From contig NZ_CP142525.1 in NCBI RefSeq assembly GCF_051097895.1, positions 1,680,001 to 1,712,000 on the forward strand: a DNA stretch of 32,000 nucleotides. The letters are read 5' to 3'. Every line of letters starts with the position of its first letter. Position 1 is the stretch's first letter. The notes below the pieces were generated by a model. That model ran no database searches. It saw nothing but the letters and a program-made list of their open reading frames with translations, and was not told the origin of the DNA. Position numbers and translations under genes: made by a program. Below, in pieces: positions 2,925 to 31,062 of the stretch. The DNA comes from Psychrobacter sp. HD31 (GTDB lineage Bacteria; Pseudomonadota; Gammaproteobacteria; Pseudomonadales; Moraxellaceae).

Positions 2925-2984
2925 AAACCCCATTTTAGTTTTCGACTTTCTAACCAAAAATCATACATTAAGTGACTAAACAAT

Positions 2985-4643
2985 ATGGCTCAATACATCT
3001 ACACCATGAACAATGTGTCAAAACTTGTTCCACCCAAGCGTGAAATCTTAAAAAACATTAACTTATCATTTTTTCCAGGTGCCAAAATTGGTGTTTTAGG
3101 TCTTAATGGTGCGGGTAAATCTACCTTGCTAAAAATTATGGCAGGCGTTGACAAAGAGTTCAGCGGTGAAGCACGCCCACAAGCAGGCATTAAAGTTGGC
3201 TATCTTGAGCAAGAACCACAATTAGACCCAGAAAAAGACGTGCGTGGCAATGTTGAAGATGGTGTGCGCGAAGCATTAGATGCATTAGACCGTCTGAATG
3301 AAATTTATGCAGAATATGCATTACCTGATGCTGATTTTGATAAGCTCGCTGAAGAGCAGGGCAAAATGGAAGACATCATCCAATCATGGGATGCGCATAA
3401 CCTAAACAATCAGCTAGAAAAAGCGGCTGATGCCTTGCGTTTACCAGCCTGGGATGCCGATGTTAGTAAGCTTTCTGGTGGTGAAAAACGCCGTGTGGCG
3501 CTTTGCCGTCTGCTTTTGTCTAAGCCAGACATGCTACTACTTGACGAGCCAACCAACCACTTGGATGCCGAATCTGTGGCATGGTTAGAGCATTTCTTAC
3601 ACGACTACAGTGGTACTATTGTAGCAATTACCCACGATAGATATTTCCTTGATAATGTTGCTGAGTGGATTTTGGAGCTTGACCGTGGTCATGGGTATCC
3701 ATATGAAGGTAACTATACTGAATGGCTGATACAAAAAGACAGACGTTTAGAAGAGCAGCAAAAGCAGGAAGAGTCATTTGCAAAAGCCTTGAAAAAAGAA
3801 TTGGAATGGGTGCGTAAAAACCAAAAAGGTCAGCAAGCCAAATCTAAATCTCGTATGCAACGCTTTGAAGAATTGAACTCTAAAGAATTCCAAGAGCGTA
3901 ACGAAACCGCTGAAATCTATATTCCACCTGGTCCTCGTTTGGGTAATAAAGTGGTTGAAGTTAATGGCATCTCTAAGTCATTTGGCGACCGTTTGTTATA
4001 TGAAAACCTATCATTTACTGTGCCACCTGCGGCGATTGTGGGTATCATTGGTGCCAACGGTGCTGGTAAAACCACCTTATTTAACATGATTACAGGCAAA
4101 GACAGCCCAGATACAGGGACGGTTGAGCTGGGTGAGAGTGTTAAGGTTGCCTATGTTGGTCAGGTGCGTGATGAGCTAGATGATAAAAAGACAGTGTGGG
4201 AAGAAGTCTCAGATGGTTTGGATATGATTACCATCGGTGATTATGAAACTTCTAGCCGTGCTTATATTGGTCGCTTTAACTTTAAAGGTCAAGATCAGCA
4301 AAAACACGTTGGGCAACTCTCTGGTGGTGAGCGTAACCGCTTGCAACTGGCAAAAACGCTTAAGCAAGGGGCAAATGTTATCTTGCTGGATGAACCGTCT
4401 AACGACTTGGACGTAGAAACGTTGCGTGCTTTGGAGGATGCAATTCAAGTATTCCCAGGTACAGTGATGTGTGTATCGCATGACCGCTGGTTCTTAGACC
4501 GTATTGCCACACATATTTTAGCCTTTGAAGACGAAGGTCCGATTTGGTTTGATGGTAACTACTCTGAGTTTGAGGCGTATCGTAAAAAACAGTTGGGAGC
4601 CGATGCCACTCCAAAACGAGTTAAACATAAAAAGATTTCTTAA
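2985..4643 (+). CDS. ettA: Energy-dependent translational throttle protein EttA (ABC-F ATPase)
   Basis: The N-terminus MAQYIYTMNNVSKLVPPKREILKNINLSFFPGAKIGVLGLNGAGKSTLL is typical of EttA/YjjK. It has two ABC cassettes (Walker A GLNGAGKST and GANGAGKTT; signatures LSGGEKRR and LSGGERNR; Walker B LLLDEPTNHLD and ILLDEPSNDLD) and no TM domain. Confidence 0.95.
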   Translation: MAQYIYTMNNVSKLVPPKREILKNINLSFFPGAKIGVLGLNGAGKSTLLKIMAGVDKEFSGEARPQAGIKVGYLEQEPQLDPEKDVRGNVEDGVREALDALDRLNEIYAEYALPDADFDKLAEEQGKMEDIIQSWDAHNLNNQLEKAADALRLPAWDADVSKLSGGEKRRVALCRLLLSKPDMLLLDEPTNHLDAESVAWLEHFLHDYSGTIVAITHDRYFLDNVAEWILELDRGHGYPYEGNYTEWLIQKDRRLEEQQKQEESFAKALKKELEWVRKNQKGQQAKSKSRMQRFEELNSKEFQERNETAEIYIPPGPRLGNKVVEVNGISKSFGDRLLYENLSFTVPPAAIVGIIGANGAGKTTLFNMITGKDSPDTGTVELGESVKVAYVGQVRDELDDKKTVWEEVSDGLDMITIGDYETSSRAYIGRFNFKGQDQQKHVGQLSGGERNRLQLAKTLKQGANVILLDEPSNDLDVETLRALEDAIQVFPGTVMCVSHDRWFLDRIATHILAFEDEGPIWFDGNYSEFEAYRKKQLGADATPKRVKHKKIS

Positions 4644-5117: not shown

Positions 5118-6561
5118 CCAAACGCTTGTTATACTCTTTTTAGTGATATATTTACTGTTTTTGGCAGGTATTGGCATTTACACGGCACGTCGCCCAGTCA
5201 GCAATAATGAATATTTATTTGGCAATGGCTTTGGCTTTTTGTTTTCTATGTTTGGTATCGCAGCCAGTTTGTTTAGCTCGTTTACTTTGCAGGGGATGCC
5301 AGACTTTTTTAAGAATCATGGGATTGGCTCATGGGTGTTTTTAGGTATTACAGATGTTTGCTTAGCAGGCTTGCTGTTGTATTTTGGCTTAAAAATGCGT
5401 GGGTTTGCCCGCCATTTGGCTGCTAAAAACAATGGGTATGCTCCTAAAAATTTAACAGAGTGGCTAAAACAAAGCAAAATGCCACGTTGGTCGATTATCT
5501 TTTTTATCATTGCAACCACCATTTTCATGGTGCCTTATGTAACCATTGGCATTAAAGGACCTGCGATATTATTGCAAAGTGTCATTCCTTTGGGTGATAC
5601 GCACCTAATGTGGTCGTGTGCAATCGTCTTATTAATGCTTGCTTATTCTTGGTTTGGTGGTATTAGAGCCATTTTTGTAACGGATATGATTCAGGGTATG
5701 CTGCTATTGATGATTGTTTGGGCAATTGCGTTTTTTGCAATCAAGGGTGCTGGTGGTGTGGCAGAGTTATTTGAACAAGCAAAAGATATTAATCCGCAAC
5801 TCATGTCAGCGCCTGGACCTGCTGGGCTTTTTAATTGGCAATTTTTGCTGATTAGTTTTATTTCTATTATTACCATCCCTTATGTACAACCGCAAATGGC
5901 AACCCGTATGCTGGTAGCAAAAACGGATAAAGTTTTTGCACGCTCAAGCGCTGGCTTGGCATTTTTTGCTTTTATCGTTATTTTACCAACCTTATTTATT
6001 GGTCTTAGAGCGGTTGGGCTGAGTGTAGACGAAGGGGCAGTATCAACTGGCAACTTTTTGTTAGATTTAATTAATCATGATGCCACACCGTTTTTATTTG
6101 GTATGTTTATTGTGGGTGCGCTTGCGGCAGATATGTCTACGGTTGATAGCCAATTATTATCAATTGGCACGGAGTGGCGTTCTGCTTTTTTAAAAGAGGA
6201 CATTCAAAGCCATCCAAATGCCAAAAATGGGGTAAAAATTGTTGGTTTGATAGTTGCCTTGCTATCCCTGGTATTGGCGCAATCTAATTTTGAGTCTTTG
6301 ATTTTATTTGCGATTAACTCATTTGTAGGGACATCATTGCTATTACCATTGATTGTGGCAGCGGTGCTTAACTCTTCAGTAAAACGCCAATTATTGAGTA
6401 TTGCGTCTATGGTGAGTGTGACTCTATTTTTACTGAGCTTGTTTAACATCATACCAAACATGTTGGCTGGCTATCGTATTGAGCTATATATGTATGCGGT
6501 TTTAGGTGCGATGTTGCTACTAAGTTTACTGACAGAAAAAAGACAGTATCGTGTGAGTTAA
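5110..6561 (+). CDS. Sodium:solute symporter (SSS) family transporter, substrate unknown
   Basis: 483 aa and polytopic (about 12-13 hydrophobic segments). The SSS-like N-terminus is LVILFLVIYLLFLAGIGIYTARR. Strong AAGGAGG RBS before the ATG at 5110. Confidence 0.8.
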   Translation: MDNQTLVILFLVIYLLFLAGIGIYTARRPVSNNEYLFGNGFGFLFSMFGIAASLFSSFTLQGMPDFFKNHGIGSWVFLGITDVCLAGLLLYFGLKMRGFARHLAAKNNGYAPKNLTEWLKQSKMPRWSIIFFIIATTIFMVPYVTIGIKGPAILLQSVIPLGDTHLMWSCAIVLLMLAYSWFGGIRAIFVTDMIQGMLLLMIVWAIAFFAIKGAGGVAELFEQAKDINPQLMSAPGPAGLFNWQFLLISFISIITIPYVQPQMATRMLVAKTDKVFARSSAGLAFFAFIVILPTLFIGLRAVGLSVDEGAVSTGNFLLDLINHDATPFLFGMFIVGALAADMSTVDSQLLSIGTEWRSAFLKEDIQSHPNAKNGVKIVGLIVALLSLVLAQSNFESLILFAINSFVGTSLLLPLIVAAVLNSSVKRQLLSIASMVSVTLFLLSLFNIIPNMLAGYRIELYMYAVLGAMLLLSLLTEKRQYRVS

Positions 6562-25348: not shown

Positions 25349-26614
25349 ATGTTTGGTACTGCAATAGGTGGTGTCGCCATGTTTACCCTGATTATCATGG
25401 GTTTGGTTGCCATTATTTTGGTAGCACGCTCAAGACTAGTCAGTACAGGTGATGTCACAATTAATATCAATGATAATCCTGAAAACAATGTTACTACCCC
25501 AGCTGGTGGTAAATTGCTTCAAACACTTGCTGGTGAAGGTATCTTCTTATCGTCTGCTTGTGGCGGTGGTGGTACTTGTGCTCAGTGTAAGTGTAAGGTC
25601 ATCGAAGGTGGTGGCTCTATTTTACCAACTGAAGAAGGTCACTTCACTCAAGGTGAAATCCGTGATCACATGCGTTTGGCATGTCAGGTTGCTGTTAAGC
25701 AAGACATGAAAATCGAAATTGATCCAGAATTCTTTGATGTGAAAAAATGGGAATGTACCGTTGAATCTAATGACAACGTTGCAACCTTTATTAAAGAATT
25801 GGTACTACGTATCCCTGAAGGCGAATCAGTTGATTTCCGTGCTGGTGGTTATGTACAGTTAGAAGCCCCTGCTTACGAAGTTAACTATAAAGACTTCGAT
25901 ATTGGTGAAGAGTACCGTGGTGACTGGGAACAGTTTAATATGTTCCGTTACGTATCTAAAGTTGATGAGCCAGTTATCCGTGCTTATTCTATGGCTAACT
26001 ATCCAGAAGAAAAAGGCATCATCAAATTTAATATTCGTATCGCTAGTCCCCCACCTCGTGGTCCTGAAGGTATTCCACCAGGTAAAATGTCTTCTTATGT
26101 CTTTAACCTTAAACCAGGTGACAAGATTACCGTATCTGGTCCTTATGGTGAGTTCTTTGCTAAAGAGACTAAAGCTGAGATGGTATTTATTGGTGGTGGT
26201 GCAGGTATGGCACCAATGCGCTCTCATATCTTTGACCAATTGAAACGTCTTAATTCTGATCGTAAAATTAGTTTCTGGTATGGTGCTCGTTCAGTTCGTG
26301 AAATGTTCTATGTTGAAGACTATGATGGCTTGGCTGAAGAGTTTGATAACTTTGAATGGCACGTTGCGCTGTCTGATCCACAAGAAGAAGACAACTGGAA
26401 AGTCAAAAAAGACATTAATGATGAAGAAGGCGACGGATTTGTTGGCTTTATTCACAATGTCTTATTAGAAGAGTACTTAGCAAACCATCCAGCACCAGAA
26501 GACTGTGAGTTTTACATGTGTGGACCTCCGATGATGAACGCTGCGGTTATCGATATGCTACATTCATTGGGTGTAGAAGATGAAAACATCTTACTTGATG
26601 ACTTTGGTGGTTAA
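25349..26614 (+). CDS. nqrF: Na+-NQR subunit F (2Fe-2S ferredoxin / FAD / NADH-binding)
   Basis: N-terminal TM helix, the 2Fe-2S motif [15 protein letters not shown]...RLACQV, the FAD motif RAYSMAN and the NAD motif [11 protein letters not shown]. Confidence 0.94.
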
Positions 26615-26631
26615 AATACATTATTAGTTTT

Positions 26632-26665
26632 AAAAAAAAGAGCCTTTGTTAAGGCTCTTTTTTTA
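26632..26665 (+). terminator. Rho-independent terminator of the nqr operon
   Basis: A-run, GAGCCTT (26640-26646), loop TGTT, AAGGCTC (26651-26657), then T7. Confidence 0.8.
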
Positions 26666-26735
26666 TGAGATACAGTGTTGTATTGGCAATATGCATCTTA
26701 TGTTAATTAGCCAACTTTCTGATAACACCAGATGT

Positions 26736-26752
26736 TTTGTATTTAATACAAA
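26736..26752. promoter_or_regulatory. Orphan 17-bp palindrome TTTGTATT-T-AATACAAA
   Basis: Perfect 8-bp arms around one central base, in non-coding DNA downstream of nqrF. No adjacent gene start. Confidence 0.2.
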
Positions 26753-27007
26753 CCTAACTAAGAAAAACAGCTTGAAGATATAGCAAATAAAACAATTCTT
26801 GAGTTTTAAGTATTTATATAACCGTCTATTTTTAGCTGAATCATCTAAGTAAGTGTTTTTTTAGTATTTGAAAAGTATATATACTAGCTACAACCTACAA
26901 TAAAAAAAGTAATGTCAGTACCAGAAGAAAGCAAAAGAAGAAAAGTGAATAAAAATTATTTTATGAGTTAATGGTGCTTTATGGCTAATAGGTTTTTTAG
27001 GGAGCAT

Positions 27008-27068: not shown

Positions 27069-28064
27069 TTATTGCTGTGACCAACAGTTACCATTTGGTT
27101 GGTCATTGATATTGACCCAAAAGCGTTTGTTATTGACTTGTGAGCCGATATTACCAAATGATTTAAAGTTCCAGTGTCGACCATTATGAAACTCTGCAAC
27201 TTCCCAGCCTTTACCAAATTCTTTTTCACAAACTTGGTTAGCCTTATAAAGTTTATCTAAACCGGCAGTTGCTGGTGCAATTGGTCGAGTGGTTGCAACC
27301 ACTTGTTTTGCCCATTGGTTATACTGATTAGGTGTAGACACTGAGGCAGGTTTATCTAAAGCGAGTTTTTTTCTGCACAAGATTGGTAATTTGGTTTTAC
27401 ACATGGTATCGCCTTTGTATGGGTTACATTCATTTGCGCCATTACTGTAACCACAGCCGACATGTACCACGCCAGTAATACCATCTACACCATGCTTACG
27501 CCATGTCATGCCTTTTTTATCCGATTCACAAGTTATTTGTAACTTGAGCAAGGCTGATTGAACTTTAGTATCATCCTGAACATAAAAACTAAAGCGTTGA
27601 TTGCTTGTTAAACTATTAAGCAGGTTCCTGCCATTAGGTAAGCTGGCTAAATTGTAGCTAAGGTTTTTGCTTTGGTTCATTGAATTGCTAGATGACCAAG
27701 GTCTCACAGAGTATATGCTTTGACCATTTTGTGCGATACCAAAACTATCGTTTGTTGGTATATTTCTTCCATTAGGTTTTATTCTGACATTAAATTTAGC
27801 ACCAGTGACAGAACAACCCTTTTTTACTTTAAAACGCATGGTTTCTAAAAACATACGGTCCATTTGAGAGTTGTTATATCCAGCAATCCATCGACCGTTA
27901 ACTTGCGAAGGGTAGTTCCATGTTTGCTGTGGAAAATCAGCTTGTAATGGTTGGGTAGTGCTACTGGCATTTTTCGATATGGTCTGTGTGGTTGTTTGAG
28001 CAAACACAGCAGCTGAAGAAAATGCAGAAACTAAAATGACTGTTTTTATTGCTAGTTTTTTCAT
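27069..28064 (-). CDS. Secreted hypothetical protein, 8 Cys in the mature part, family not recognised
   Basis: Sec signal MKKLAIKTVILVSAFSSAAVFA|QTT. It has a beta-rich N-terminal half bracketed by two Cys (KKGC...ITCE), a Cys-dense linker (GCGYSNGANECNPYKGDTMCKTKLPILC), and a C-terminal region ending ...CEKEFGKGWEVAEFHNGRHWNFKSFGN...RFWVNINDQPNGNCW. A strong terminator lies downstream. Confidence 0.7.
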   Translation of the reverse strand: MKKLAIKTVILVSAFSSAAVFAQTTTQTISKNASSTTQPLQADFPQQTWNYPSQVNGRWIAGYNNSQMDRMFLETMRFKVKKGCSVTGAKFNVRIKPNGRNIPTNDSFGIAQNGQSIYSVRPWSSSNSMNQSKNLSYNLASLPNGRNLLNSLTSNQRFSFYVQDDTKVQSALLKLQITCESDKKGMTWRKHGVDGITGVVHVGCGYSNGANECNPYKGDTMCKTKLPILCRKKLALDKPASVSTPNQYNQWAKQVVATTRPIAPATAGLDKLYKANQVCEKEFGKGWEVAEFHNGRHWNFKSFGNIGSQVNNKRFWVNINDQPNGNCWSQQ

Positions 28065-28165
28065 GGCAGTATTCCTTGTAAAGTGTTGTTTAATTGTTCG
28101 TTAAGTTAAGTCCTTCATTTCGATACCACTAGAATTTAATAATAATTTCAATCACATTTTCAGGT

Positions 28166-28185
28166 AACTGTAGATATCTACAGGT
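28166..28185. promoter_or_regulatory. Lux-box-like palindrome AACTGTAGATATCTACAGGT (perfect 16-bp core, 28168-28183); candidate LuxR-family operator for divergent promoters
   Basis: CTGTAGATATCTACAG is perfectly self-complementary. Its centre at 28175.5 is 111.5 bp from the ATG at 28064 (-) and 110.5 bp from the ATG at 28286 (+). GATAAT (28206-28211, + strand) and TATTAT (28144-28139, - strand) sit about 30-31 bp on either side. Confidence 0.5.
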
Positions 28186-28285
28186 AGGTCTGCTCATTCA
28201 AACATGATAATACTAGTTAGATTTAAATCTAAAAAATAATGTACACTAAAATCTATATCTGACAAAAATTAGGTAGCATGAAGGG

Positions 28286-30133
28286 ATGAAAAGACTACTT
28301 GTTTATATATGCTTAATGTTTATGGTATTAATTACTTGCTCATTTAGTTGGGCAGGTGGTACAAGTAAGGTATTGCCAAAATATTGGCAGTTTTATCAAA
28401 CCAATGACGCTAACTTGCATTACTCTGATGTTAAAGAAAGCAAATGGCAGCCTGTTGATGCGAGTAAGGTGTTAAGAACGAATCCCAAAAATGGAATTTA
28501 TGGCTGGTATCTCATTAATTTTGATATCGATGATGTTCATAATACAGATGATGAAATAAATGATCAGGTGTCACTATTTATTAGTAGAATCCGCCATGCT
28601 GATGAAACTTGGATAAATGGTAAAAAAATAGGCGGGGTTGGAAAAATTGAGAAACCTTGGGAGTTAATTGGTAATAATCCCAAAAACATGCCCAGAAAAT
28701 ACCCTGTCCCACGCAATCTACTAAAAAATGAAAATAACCTATTAGCGATAAAAGTGAGTCTCGGCTTTGCGAACTCTTGGGGAGCGATGCAGCCAGGCAG
28801 TGTGGGGCTTAATGCCAAAAGCATATTTTTTGCTAACAAAGCAGATGTCGATGCGTATTACCAAAAAACAGTGCTGCAAGATGTAATTTTTGATACATGT
28901 TTGATTCTGTTGAGTTTGGTTAACATGTTTATCATTATATTTTTATTTAGACGTTCTATTCATAATTTTAGAGAGTTTGGGTGGTTGTTTGTTGATAGCG
29001 TGGTGTTGTTGGGTAGTATTTTTTTGTTGGATATTACCAATGTATTAAAAATTTCGATTCCTTATAGTGGTTATCTGTTGATGTTGTCGATATTTCTGAC
29101 ACCACTCGTGGTTGCCATGTATTTTTGGTCAATGTATCAAAACATTCCCAAAAAACAGGTTACCGTCATTTTTTGCTTAGTGCTTTTTTGCTCTCTTTCT
29201 ATGTTTTTGCCTATTTTTTCTGAGGGGCAAAAACATGTCTTATGGATTAGTTGGTGTATATTCCATGCTTTTTTATTACTCTACAGTTTGTTATCGGCCG
29301 TCATTGGTGTAAAAAATAAAATGATAGGCGCAAGGGCACAGCTTTTTGGTATGGTTATTTTTATTTTTTCAATTCGTACACAATGGTTACCAACTGACCT
29401 TTTTACGCATAGAAATGTTGTGATTGGTTCACTGATTATGCGCTATGCTTTTTTGTTTTCTTATTTTCAGCGCATCAATCAAATGAGCTATGATTATAAG
29501 CGTTTATCACAACATTTACTTTCGACCATTGAGCAACATAAACAAAACATTGCCAGAGACTTGCATGATGACTTAGGGCAACGTTTATCAGCGATAAAGT
29601 TACGAATGCTGTTGCTGTCTGGTGACAATAAGCAAGCGTCTATAAACTACATTAAAGATGAAGTAGATGCTACCATGGGTGCTGTACGTGAATTAATGCA
29701 AGGGTTACATCCGTTTGTACTTGAAGAACATGGCTTTGCAACCGCATTAAAAGTCGAGTCGCAGCGGATTGCTAAGCTTTATAATGTCGATATCTCATTG
29801 CAGGCAGAAGATATTGAATTAGATTTTGAGAATAAAAAACATCTTTTTAGAATTTTTCAAGAAACCGTTAATAATGCAATAAAGCATGGGCAGGCCAAGC
29901 ATATACAAGTTAAATTGTATATGAAAAAGCAGAGACTATTTTTTACGGTAGTAGATGATGGCGTTGGTTTTAGTGTTAATGTTAATGATTCGCACATTGC
30001 TGGCAGAGGATTTGGATTGATTAGCTTAAAAGAAAGAGTCGCGATTTTGGATGGGCATCTTTTTATTACGTCGCAGTTAAATCAAGGTTGTAAAGTTAAA
30101 ATATGGTTACCGATATCCTCAACGAGTCACTAA
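28286..30133 (+). CDS. Sensor histidine kinase, 7TMR-DISM-type (galactose-binding-like periplasmic domain + 7 TM + HisKA_3 + HATPase_c)
   Basis: Signal/TM1 LLVYICLMFMVLITCSFSWA. The periplasmic domain has a GH2-N/7TMR-DISMED2-like pattern (GWYLINFDI...LFISRIRHADETWINGKKIGG...NNLLAIKV). About seven hydrophobic segments follow. H-box IARDLHDDLGQRLSAIK, N-box ETVNNAIKHGQA, G-boxes VVDDGVGF and GRGFGLISLKERV. Confidence 0.85.
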   Translation: MKRLLVYICLMFMVLITCSFSWAGGTSKVLPKYWQFYQTNDANLHYSDVKESKWQPVDASKVLRTNPKNGIYGWYLINFDIDDVHNTDDEINDQVSLFISRIRHADETWINGKKIGGVGKIEKPWELIGNNPKNMPRKYPVPRNLLKNENNLLAIKVSLGFANSWGAMQPGSVGLNAKSIFFANKADVDAYYQKTVLQDVIFDTCLILLSLVNMFIIIFLFRRSIHNFREFGWLFVDSVVLLGSIFLLDITNVLKISIPYSGYLLMLSIFLTPLVVAMYFWSMYQNIPKKQVTVIFCLVLFCSLSMFLPIFSEGQKHVLWISWCIFHAFLLLYSLLSAVIGVKNKMIGARAQLFGMVIFIFSIRTQWLPTDLFTHRNVVIGSLIMRYAFLFSYFQRINQMSYDYKRLSQHLLSTIEQHKQNIARDLHDDLGQRLSAIKLRMLLLSGDNKQASINYIKDEVDATMGAVRELMQGLHPFVLEEHGFATALKVESQRIAKLYNVDISLQAEDIELDFENKKHLFRIFQETVNNAIKHGQAKHIQVKLYMKKQRLFFTVVDDGVGFSVNVNDSHIAGRGFGLISLKERVAILDGHLFITSQLNQGCKVKIWLPISSTSH

Positions 30134-30163: not shown

Positions 30164-30793
30164 TTATATGATCTGATTTTTTATGGCAAAGGTTACGGCT
30201 TGCGTACGGTTTGATACACCAAGCTTTACAAAACAGTTGGCTAGATGAAAACATACCGTTCTTTCAGTGATGCCCAGTTGATGGGCAATTTGCTTATTTA
30301 AGTCGCCATTAATAATACATTTAAGGATTTCCCGTTCACGGTTAGTAAGCTTAATATCTGTGGAATGATTTTGTAACTCGCTAACGGTTTCTATTAAGAA
30401 CGGAGAAATAAACTGACCGCCAGAGTTTACCTCTTGAATGGCTTCTAGCAAATCTTCAAAGGCATTGTCTTTTACAACATAACCATTTAATCCCAGTTGT
30501 AATAGTTGGTTTGCTCGATAGGCATCATTGAGCATGGTTAAAGCAATGACCTTGGTATCCATCTGATTATCTTCAATAAATAGAATGAGCTCATCAATAG
30601 ACGTGCCTGGCATTGATAAATCTACTAATGCAACATCAGGTTGGAAGGTTTTTATTAATGACAAAGTATCTGAACCATTATTGGCACTGCCTTGCAGCTC
30701 TGTCCATGGTAGTTTATCAAACAACACGCTTAGCCCATCTAAAAATATTTGATGGTCGTCTGCAACAATAAGCGTGATAAGAGAGTGACACAT
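30164..30793 (-). CDS. NarL/FixJ-family response regulator (REC + LuxR/GerE HTH)
   Basis: REC residues are intact (IVADDH, VALVDLSMPG, VIALT, YVVKD). The C-terminal LuxR HTH is LTNREREILKCIINGDLNKQIAHQLGITERTVCFHLANCFVKLGVSNRTQAV. Confidence 0.88.
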   Translation of the reverse strand: MCHSLITLIVADDHQIFLDGLSVLFDKLPWTELQGSANNGSDTLSLIKTFQPDVALVDLSMPGTSIDELILFIEDNQMDTKVIALTMLNDAYRANQLLQLGLNGYVVKDNAFEDLLEAIQEVNSGGQFISPFLIETVSELQNHSTDIKLTNREREILKCIINGDLNKQIAHQLGITERTVCFHLANCFVKLGVSNRTQAVTFAIKNQII

Positions 30794-31062
30794 TGCAAAG
30801 ATACTTTTGGTTGTTATGGTTAATGTAACGCTAAAATCAATTTGCAGCGTTTAAGTGTTAGTTAAAGAAATTTAAAGTGGTATAGCAAGTTATTAATAAT
30901 ACTGGAGATAATTAATTAATCTTAATCTCTTTTATCCTATCACATGCGTGAATAGCTTGTATAATTATCCCTTAAAATAATACGGCCGTTATTTAATAGT
31001 GGTTATTTAAGCAAAAGATACTCAAGAATTTTTTGATAAGATAGGCTTAGTGGTTCAAACTT

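Follow-up and report, generated by a model that had tools for sequence, protein, structure and literature searches.

A conserved lux-box-like palindrome is probably the operator of an adjacent NarL/LuxR-family response regulator in Psychrobacter sp. HD31

We describe here a 20-bp palindrome in Psychrobacter sp. HD31 that is probably the operator of an adjacent NarL/LuxR-family response regulator, from which that protein would activate two divergent promoters. The palindrome, termed the box below, lies in a 32,000-nucleotide stretch of contig NZ_CP142525.1 (positions 1,680,001 to 1,712,000; hereafter the window), within the 221-bp spacer that separates the divergent open reading frames (ORFs) encoding a sensor histidine kinase on one side and a secreted protein on the other. 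The site is unique in the window, is conserved in orthologous gene clusters, stands at a fixed spacing from -10 elements, co-occurs with a kinase/regulator pair, and has arms that co-vary, over a single clade split, with the recognition helix of the regulator. The position of the box is as follows.

28166..28185, strand not applicable: operator box AACTGTAGATATCTACAGGT, proposed dimer-binding site of the adjacent NarL/LuxR-family response regulator.

Conservation of the box across lineages

The preliminary description of this site, made from the window alone, had named conservation in orthologous loci as a check on its proposal. The box indeed recurs beside orthologous kinase/regulator pairs, being present in 10 of 11 orthologous lineages whose kinases are 33-51% identical and which, among the box carriers, come from different orders. 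A gene for a GerE-type regulator, convergent with the kinase gene, follows it in every locus retrieved from the 11 lineages. Kinase orthologues, of which there are about 20 in total at 32-52% identity, were used for the footprinting because homologues of the secreted protein stand in contexts without the box: the nearest beyond the species among 23 such homologues, P0002 and P0004 (43-45% identity), are found in other gene contexts, and their loci contain neither the kinase/regulator system nor the box. When the kinase alignment was used as a profile to search genome contigs, 3 of 80 loci contained full-length orthologues (L010-L012; L-numbers denote loci throughout), the others being generic HisKA_3 kinases.

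In a first look at the regions upstream of the kinases, dyads of a related kind were apparent at L094, L012, L011 (Enterovibrio norvegicus) and L010. The five first-look sites were combined into a symmetrised weight matrix that was then used to search for further sites. At a threshold of at least 20 bits, this matrix found 10 non-training matches in 129 kb of orthologous loci against none in 874 kb of unrelated (non-orthologous) loci (p ~1e-9). A blind scan of JGI metagenomes for the exact 20-mer returned four contigs, three of which carry the site beside an orthologous kinase/regulator pair; two of these were already known, and the third (L101) was new. The fourth contig, L099, shows the site in a different setting, described below.

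The consensus of the 15 sites is ACCTGTAGATATCTACAGGT, in which CTG-N10-CAG is invariant. This sequence is carried by L092/L093, L094, L095, L098 and L101, and its core is that of the window box. The L091 box reads ACCTGAAGATATCTACAGTT, and L012, L011 and L010 share the variant A/C-ACTG(T/G)CG-N4-CGACAG-GT. Dyad symmetry reaches 24 bp in L092, L094, L095 and L098. There are up to three copies of the box per cluster, one ahead of each transcription unit in the multi-gene clusters. The L092/L093 box lies between a divergent 322-aa gene and an operon comprising a small ORF and the kinase, and the new L101 cluster consists of regulator, kinase, small ORFs, box and a homologue of the 322-aa protein. 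In L094 one box is found ahead of a 424-aa gene and a second ahead of the kinase, L095 has three boxes for three transcription units (a 432-aa gene, a 253-aa gene, and a 98-aa ORF with the kinase), and L098 has two boxes. The L091 box precedes a 304-aa gene, and in L011 a 758-aa gene is preceded by a second box. The neighbouring targets differ between clusters: they comprise a beta-sandwich protein of 331 or 304 aa, proteins of 322, 424-432 and 253 aa, small ORFs, and proteins with NHL or TSP3 repeats whose lengths range from 758 to at least 1961 aa.

When the L092 and L101 spacers are aligned, identical positions are restricted to two -10 elements and to the box and the bases directly flanking it, the remainder of the spacer having diverged. 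In the 99%-identical relative L001, 20 of 20 box positions are kept, while 8 substitutions and an 11-bp deletion are found elsewhere in the 221-bp spacer, a pattern that is consistent with constraint on the box and constitutes weak evidence for it.

Two further features of the orthologous boxes were observed. The 432-aa and 253-aa target genes of L095 and L098 are paralogues, ~72% identical over the N-terminal 200 aa, and each has its own box (L095 219-238 and 1970-1989; L098 233-252 and 1989-2008) exactly 182.5 bp from the start codon; the promoter was therefore duplicated along with the gene. In L012 an overlapping everted repeat, CCGACAGCAACAACTGTCGG, stands beside the box at 5870-5902 and places three CGACAG/CTGTCG half-sites in a row. 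This repeat could provide a second binding register.

Promoter architecture around the box

A -10-like hexamer had been claimed on each side of the window box. Both are present, 30.5 bp from the box centre on the kinase side and 31.5 bp from it on the secreted-protein side.

28206..28211, + strand: -10-like GATAAT, at 20 nt from the edge of the box, for the kinase promoter; predicted start ~28218.
28139..28144, - strand (read as 28144-28139): -10-like TATTAT, at exactly 21 nt from the edge of the box, for the promoter of the secreted protein; predicted start ~28132.

The spacing on the secreted-protein side equals that of 15 other gene-facing promoters in the orthologous clusters. Overall, 16 of 21 gene-facing sides have a TAnnnT hexamer at a distance of exactly 21 nt from the edge of the box, as against none of the 9 other sides (Fisher p 1.4e-4; background 1.8%). 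The -10 at this position reads tTGnTATGCT in L092, L094, L095, L098 and L101, TATACT in L010 and L011, and TACCAT in L091. On the opposite side of the box, TAGACT or TAAACT is found at 21 nt in L092, L101 and L010. Hexamers are therefore present on both sides of the box in these three loci and in the window, which indicates that the bidirectional design is conserved. On the kinase side of the window the alternative register TGaTAATAC (28205-28213) would place the -10 at 22 nt from the box edge.

Inspection of the box-aligned sites revealed no -35-like hexamer at either the window or the orthologous promoters, and a generic sigma-70 promoter scan found no canonical promoter around the window box. 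An empty scan is to be expected where promoters are without a -35 element and depend on an activator. We derived the position of the box from the -10 elements, taking the hexamer as -12 to -7. The conserved 21-nt TAnnnT then puts the box centre near -42.5/-43.5, supporting the class-II-like geometry suggested in the preliminary description. These predicted promoters, each with a -10 but no -35 element and with the box overlapping the -35 region, have the geometry typical of class II activators.

The alternative that best survives, although we think it unlikely, is that the same regulator binds the box and represses. It would occupy -53 to -34 and block RNA polymerase at two extended -10 promoters, resulting in negative autoregulation. 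Many of the promoters do have a TGn-extended -10 and would be able to work without a -35, leaving a bound dimer in a position to occlude the polymerase, and it has been found that relocating the lux box converts LuxR into a repressor (PMC4444344, PMC5001607). These considerations are countered by the weakness of the -10 hexamers (TATGCT, TACCAT, TAGACT), which together with the missing -35 is the signature of activator-dependent promoters. Moreover, box and -10 are separated by a distance that is constant to the base pair, as class II activators require, and that equals the spacing which we take the luxI promoter to have. The sites of repressors can usually lie at various places over a core promoter.

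The adjacent regulator as the candidate binding protein

The kinase and the regulator are the only genes common to all box-bearing clusters, and the regulator is the sole helix-turn-helix (HTH) protein among them. Its recognition helix varies together with the arms of the box, as set out below. The shared gene pair supports the earlier nomination of the adjacent regulator as the binding protein, and the variation of the helix with the arms is suggestive of it.

Helix RTV-C-FHL-A-N (window, L091): arms CTGTAG (in L091, CTGAAG on one side).
Helix RTV-C-FHM-R-N (L092, L094, L095, L098): arms CTGTAG (one arm CTGTAT or CTGTAA in three sites).
Helix RTV-R-FH.. (L010, L011, L012): arms CTG(T/G)CG / CG(A/C)CAG.
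Helix RTV-S-FHL-S-N (L090): no box found.

At the residue aligned to NarL Lys188, CTGTAG arms go with Cys and CTGKCG arms with Arg, a difference that follows a single clade split. This variable position also aligns with Arg206 of TraR, and we take both aligned residues to be base-contacting. An Arg alongside G/C-containing arms would be chemically sensible, and the co-variation of helix and arms is suggestive. The Ser found at the co-varying position in L090 may reflect a changed specificity.

Another LuxR-family protein, with its gene at some other place in the genome, might instead bind the box, either a LuxR responsive to acyl-homoserine lactone (AHL) or a LuxR solo; the site would then be a genuine lux box of quorum sensing. 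We consider this improbable. It draws on a resemblance: the Vibrio fischeri lux box given in the preliminary description, ACCTGTAGGATCGTACAGGT, is the correct sequence (PMC4444344), the window box agrees with it at 14 of 20 positions, as had been claimed, and the family consensus does so at 15 of 20, with identical outer arms. The class II arrangement is likewise that found at luxI, and our inspection covered 32 kb of the genome. However, in at least 10 lineages, which belong to different orders, the box accompanies this kinase/regulator pair, and it changes together with the recognition helix of the adjacent regulator. No autoinducer-binding or LuxI gene is present in the 32-kb window or in any orthologous cluster. 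Within the window, the check for an acyl-HSL LuxR was negative, and the only GerE/LuxR-type HTH protein found is the regulator at 30164-30793, as previously stated. An AHL-responsive LuxR encoded elsewhere would leave the linkage of the box to the kinase/regulator pair unexplained. Because the AHL-binding LuxR that defines such a site is not associated with the box, we do not regard it as a quorum-sensing lux box.

The box in the window, the SOS box and chance

The perfect 16-bp palindromic core of the box (28168-28183) and its symmetry at 18 of 20 positions are as first described. So is its uniqueness, then judged by eye: the window contains a single CTGT-N8-ACAG site, and the 16-mer has no other match at up to 3 mismatches. 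The box centre is 110.5 bp from the kinase ATG and 111.5 bp from that of the secreted protein, distances with which the ORF calls agree. Its description as lying exactly midway between the genes holds for the window but not as a conserved property, since the 11-bp deletion in L001 falls on one side of the box and the distances in L092 are 140.5 and 121.5 bp. The equal spacing to the two start codons is incidental.

An Rfam search and RNA folding of the 221-bp spacer found nothing. A terminator, a mobile-element end and an RNA structure were rejected as identities for the box because the site lies upstream of the two predicted starts, lacks a T-run and is present as a single copy.

The window box is also an exact match to the gammaproteobacterial LexA SOS-box core, CTGT-N8-ACAG, a possibility that had been overlooked. 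LexA would in this case repress one or both genes until DNA damage. The LexA heterology index of the box is 8.9, within the 0.3-9.8 range of E. coli operators (n=19). The bare core, on the other hand, is expected 0.49 times in the window by chance. Orthologous boxes reading CTGGCG, CTGTCG or CTGAAG have heterology indices of 12-22. Among these, the CTGKCG-arm boxes of L010, L011 and L012, with indices of 17-22, are not LexA-like yet keep their position and -10 spacing, and LexA is ruled out as the explanation of the conserved site on this basis. The clusters moreover have up to three boxes, always adjoining this two-component system, and the downstream genes (sensor kinase, secreted proteins) have no link to DNA repair. 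Control of the window genes by LexA is thus very improbable.

A palindrome without function, produced by chance, is the least tenable explanation. About 0.9 perfect 16-bp palindromes are expected in a sequence such as the window and three are present, one of which, close to the box, is already broken in the 99%-identical relative; but the comparative data, comprising conservation of the motif at 33-51% protein identity, its enrichment, the fixed -10 spacing and the further cluster found by the blind scan, effectively refute this possibility. Because perfect 16-bp palindromes are not rare here, the case for more than chance rests on conservation in the orthologous loci. From the window sequence alone, a lux-type box, an SOS box and a chance palindrome are not distinguishable.

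The neighbouring palindrome, TTAGATTTAAATCTAA (28217-28232), shares the spacer with the box and would occupy ~+1 to +15 of the kinase transcript as predicted. Two substitutions disrupt it in L001, it is absent from the other orthologues, its RNA fold is no better than that of shuffled sequences (z -0.32), and it is probably without function. The third perfect 16-bp palindrome of the window, AGTGGTTGCAACCACT (27288-27303), lies within the secreted-protein ORF.

The kinase, the regulator and the secreted protein

The three genes associated with the box in the window are the following.

28286..30133, + strand: sensor histidine kinase, 615 aa (Pfam); proposed target of positive autoregulation.
30164..30793, - strand: NarL/FixJ/LuxR-family response regulator, 209 aa (WP_434353054.1), with receiver (Response_reg) and GerE HTH (Pfam); convergent with the kinase gene; proposed box-binding protein.
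27069..28064, - strand: secreted protein, 331 aa, with Sec signal peptide (ORF call); proposed co-regulated target.

The kinase is composed of a signal/transmembrane segment, a periplasmic module resembling a galactose-binding domain, a 7TMR-DISM-like membrane block, and HisKA_3 and HATPase_c domains. Pfam matches to the two sensory parts are weak but recur consistently in the family, with BetaGal_gal-bd found in 16 of 21 members and 7TMR-DISM_7TM in 13 of 21. The catalytic His427 (H box) and the N and G boxes are invariant in the orthologue alignment. The receiver of the regulator is likewise intact, with the phospho-acceptor D58 and residues D12, D13, T86 and K108 invariant. Its closest relative in the PDB is NarL (1a04, E 6e-26), and its HTH scores 48 bits against LiaR-like proteins, 44 against VraR, 38 against RhlR and 37 against NarL, placing it no nearer to quorum-sensing regulators than to other response regulators. 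No NCBIfam equivalog reaches the cut-off for either the kinase or the regulator.

The secreted 331-aa protein belongs to no Pfam or NCBIfam family. Its AlphaFold model (predicted local distance difference test score, pLDDT, 84.7) has an N-terminal beta-sandwich followed by a C-terminal Cys-rich domain, and the fold matches of the model are weak (jelly-roll/BcsB-like, E ~1e-3, TM-score ~0.27). The N-terminal domain is 46-52% identical to the product of the box-preceded 304-aa gene in L091.

The window as a whole has a G+C content of 39% and also carries nqrA-F, plsB, ettA and cydDC. The 90% cluster of its PlsB includes a metagenome-assembled genome labelled just Gammaproteobacteria. Sub-threshold Rfam matches (E 0.25-0.8) pile up at 26573-26777, directly after nqrF, and most likely represent a terminator-like hairpin rather than a known RNA.

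Proposed mechanism

In the mechanism that we favour, the kinase (28286-30133) would sense a signal, possibly a carbohydrate, and presumably phosphorylate the regulator (30164-30793). A dimer of the phosphorylated regulator would then bind the 20-bp dyad ACCTGTAG-N4-CTACAGGT at about -43. The dyad is predicted to be centred ~42.5-43.5 bp upstream of the starts of two back-to-back promoters that have a -10, often TGn-extended, and no -35. Bound there, the dimer would act as a class II activator that recruits RNA polymerase, in the manner of LuxR at luxI and of TraR at the divergent traA/traC promoters. This would switch on the kinase gene, giving positive feedback, and from the same box would also switch on the divergent secreted-protein gene. 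The regulator gene itself would be expressed independently of the box.

Several observations weigh against this mechanism. The palindrome by itself is statistically unremarkable: the three perfect 16-bp palindromes of the window compare with 0.9 +/- 0.97 in dinucleotide shuffles, at least one being found in 58% of shuffles. On the kinase side the -10 of the window is one base off the conserved 21-nt spacing, and repression, too, could result if a protein occupies -53 to -34 at a promoter of the extended -10 type. The co-variation of helix and arms amounts to one clade split (7 versus 3 sequences), for which shared ancestry could account. L090, which encodes a kinase orthologue of 50% identity, has neither the box nor any CTG-N10-CAG site in 7.8 kb (7822 bp). 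Conversely, L099 contains an exact ACCTGTAGATATCTACAGGT (3405-3424) where the context is unrelated and the 4.9 kb examined include no kinase/regulator pair; this copy could be either a distant member of the regulon or a match by chance. Lastly, there is no box or half-site upstream of the regulator gene (30794-31062), and classical operon autoregulation is inapplicable for this reason.

The L099 contig (19 kb) contains integrase, GNAT and beta-lactamase-like genes. Its box is upstream of a gene for a 130-aa CheY-like receiver (2948-3340, - strand) and has TGaTAGTAT 21 nt from its edge.

Implications

These results amount to a regulon prediction for a two-component family without a characterised member. 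It names an operator sequence and a promoter architecture as well as the local targets, which are secreted proteins, and the likely sign of their regulation. The support for this prediction is phylogenetic footprinting and not a single palindrome. We regard it as a solid and testable prediction, with a curious convergence on the lux box, that involves no new principle.

The likeness to the lux box in both arms and geometry suggests a phosphorylation-controlled regulator that might act on lux-type promoters. This bears on cross-talk in the Vibrionaceae, since Enterovibrio norvegicus has the system, and on parts for synthetic biology. A more far-reaching reading, which we advance tentatively and think doubtful, is that an uncharacterised family of marine gammaproteobacterial two-component systems shares the operator arms of AHL-responsive LuxR proteins and the promoter architecture of luxI. 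The family in question would be defined by a 7TMR-DISM-like kinase with a galactose-binding-like sensor and a NarL-type regulator, together with a promoter arrangement of box, 21 nt and extended -10 without a -35. If the likeness to the lux box has functional meaning, the regulator could bind the boxes of quorum-sensing LuxR proteins and they its own, and either the phosphorelay and quorum-sensing regulons would be linked or the DNA-binding modules would be of shared ancestry. On this reading the regulon, composed of secreted beta-sandwich proteins, would amount to a new response of the envelope or surface. More generally, a lux-box-like or SOS-box-like sequence is not assignable to a regulator from a single copy.

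Relation to known systems

The box resembles the V. fischeri lux box in being a 20-bp dyad with a CTG-N10-CAG core, and the outer arms of its consensus, ACCTGTAG...TACAGGT, are identical to those of the lux box. As with the lux box and LuxR at luxI, the predicted recogniser has a GerE/LuxR-type HTH and the site overlaps a -35 region without a good -35 element. We take the luxI promoter to have its lux box centred at -42.5 with 21 nt to TGT-TATAGT, an arrangement that our literature searches did not confirm. The two boxes differ in their central six bases. In addition, unlike the lux box, the box described here has as its likely binder a phosphorylation-dependent receiver-domain regulator and not an AHL receptor, and there is no luxI nearby. 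At luxI itself, LuxR makes contact with RNA polymerase from a lux box that lies over the -35 region (PMC5001607).

Use of one site in two directions has a precedent in tra box I, from which TraR serves two divergent class II-type promoters, the box being ~45 nt upstream of each start and over the -35 region (PMC3907764). The box shares with this site, located at traAFB/traCDG of the Agrobacterium Ti plasmid, the arrangement of a single palindromic operator between two divergent class II-type promoters. The tra box is otherwise different: it is 18 bp long, has other arms (ATGTGCAGATCTGCACAT), depends on AHL, is plasmid-borne and controls conjugation genes.

The resemblance to the LexA SOS box is confined to the CTGT-N8-ACAG core and a heterology index within the functional range. 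The orthologous sites are not kept as LexA boxes, and neither the genomic context nor the activator-type geometry fits.

The closest relationship is with the operators of NarL/FixJ-family regulators. The regulator has the architecture of this family, and NarL is its nearest solved structure. Dimers of NarL/FixJ-family proteins bind inverted repeats, and their targets commonly adjoin two-component genes. Boxes of the family include the 7-2-7 arrangement of NarL, TGTAAG-N6-CTTACA of GacA/UvrY, the 20-bp palindrome of DosR, and those of EvgA and RcsB. To our knowledge the half-site and spacing ACCTGTAG-N4-CTACAGGT match none of these. Our searches found no mention of the 16-mer in the searchable literature, and the kinase is distinguished by a 7TMR-DISM-like sensor and a galactose-binding-like domain. 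On the best reading of these comparisons, the box would belong to the broad class of NarL/FixJ-family regulator operators and would, in its mode of action, resemble a lux box or tra box that serves a class II promoter.

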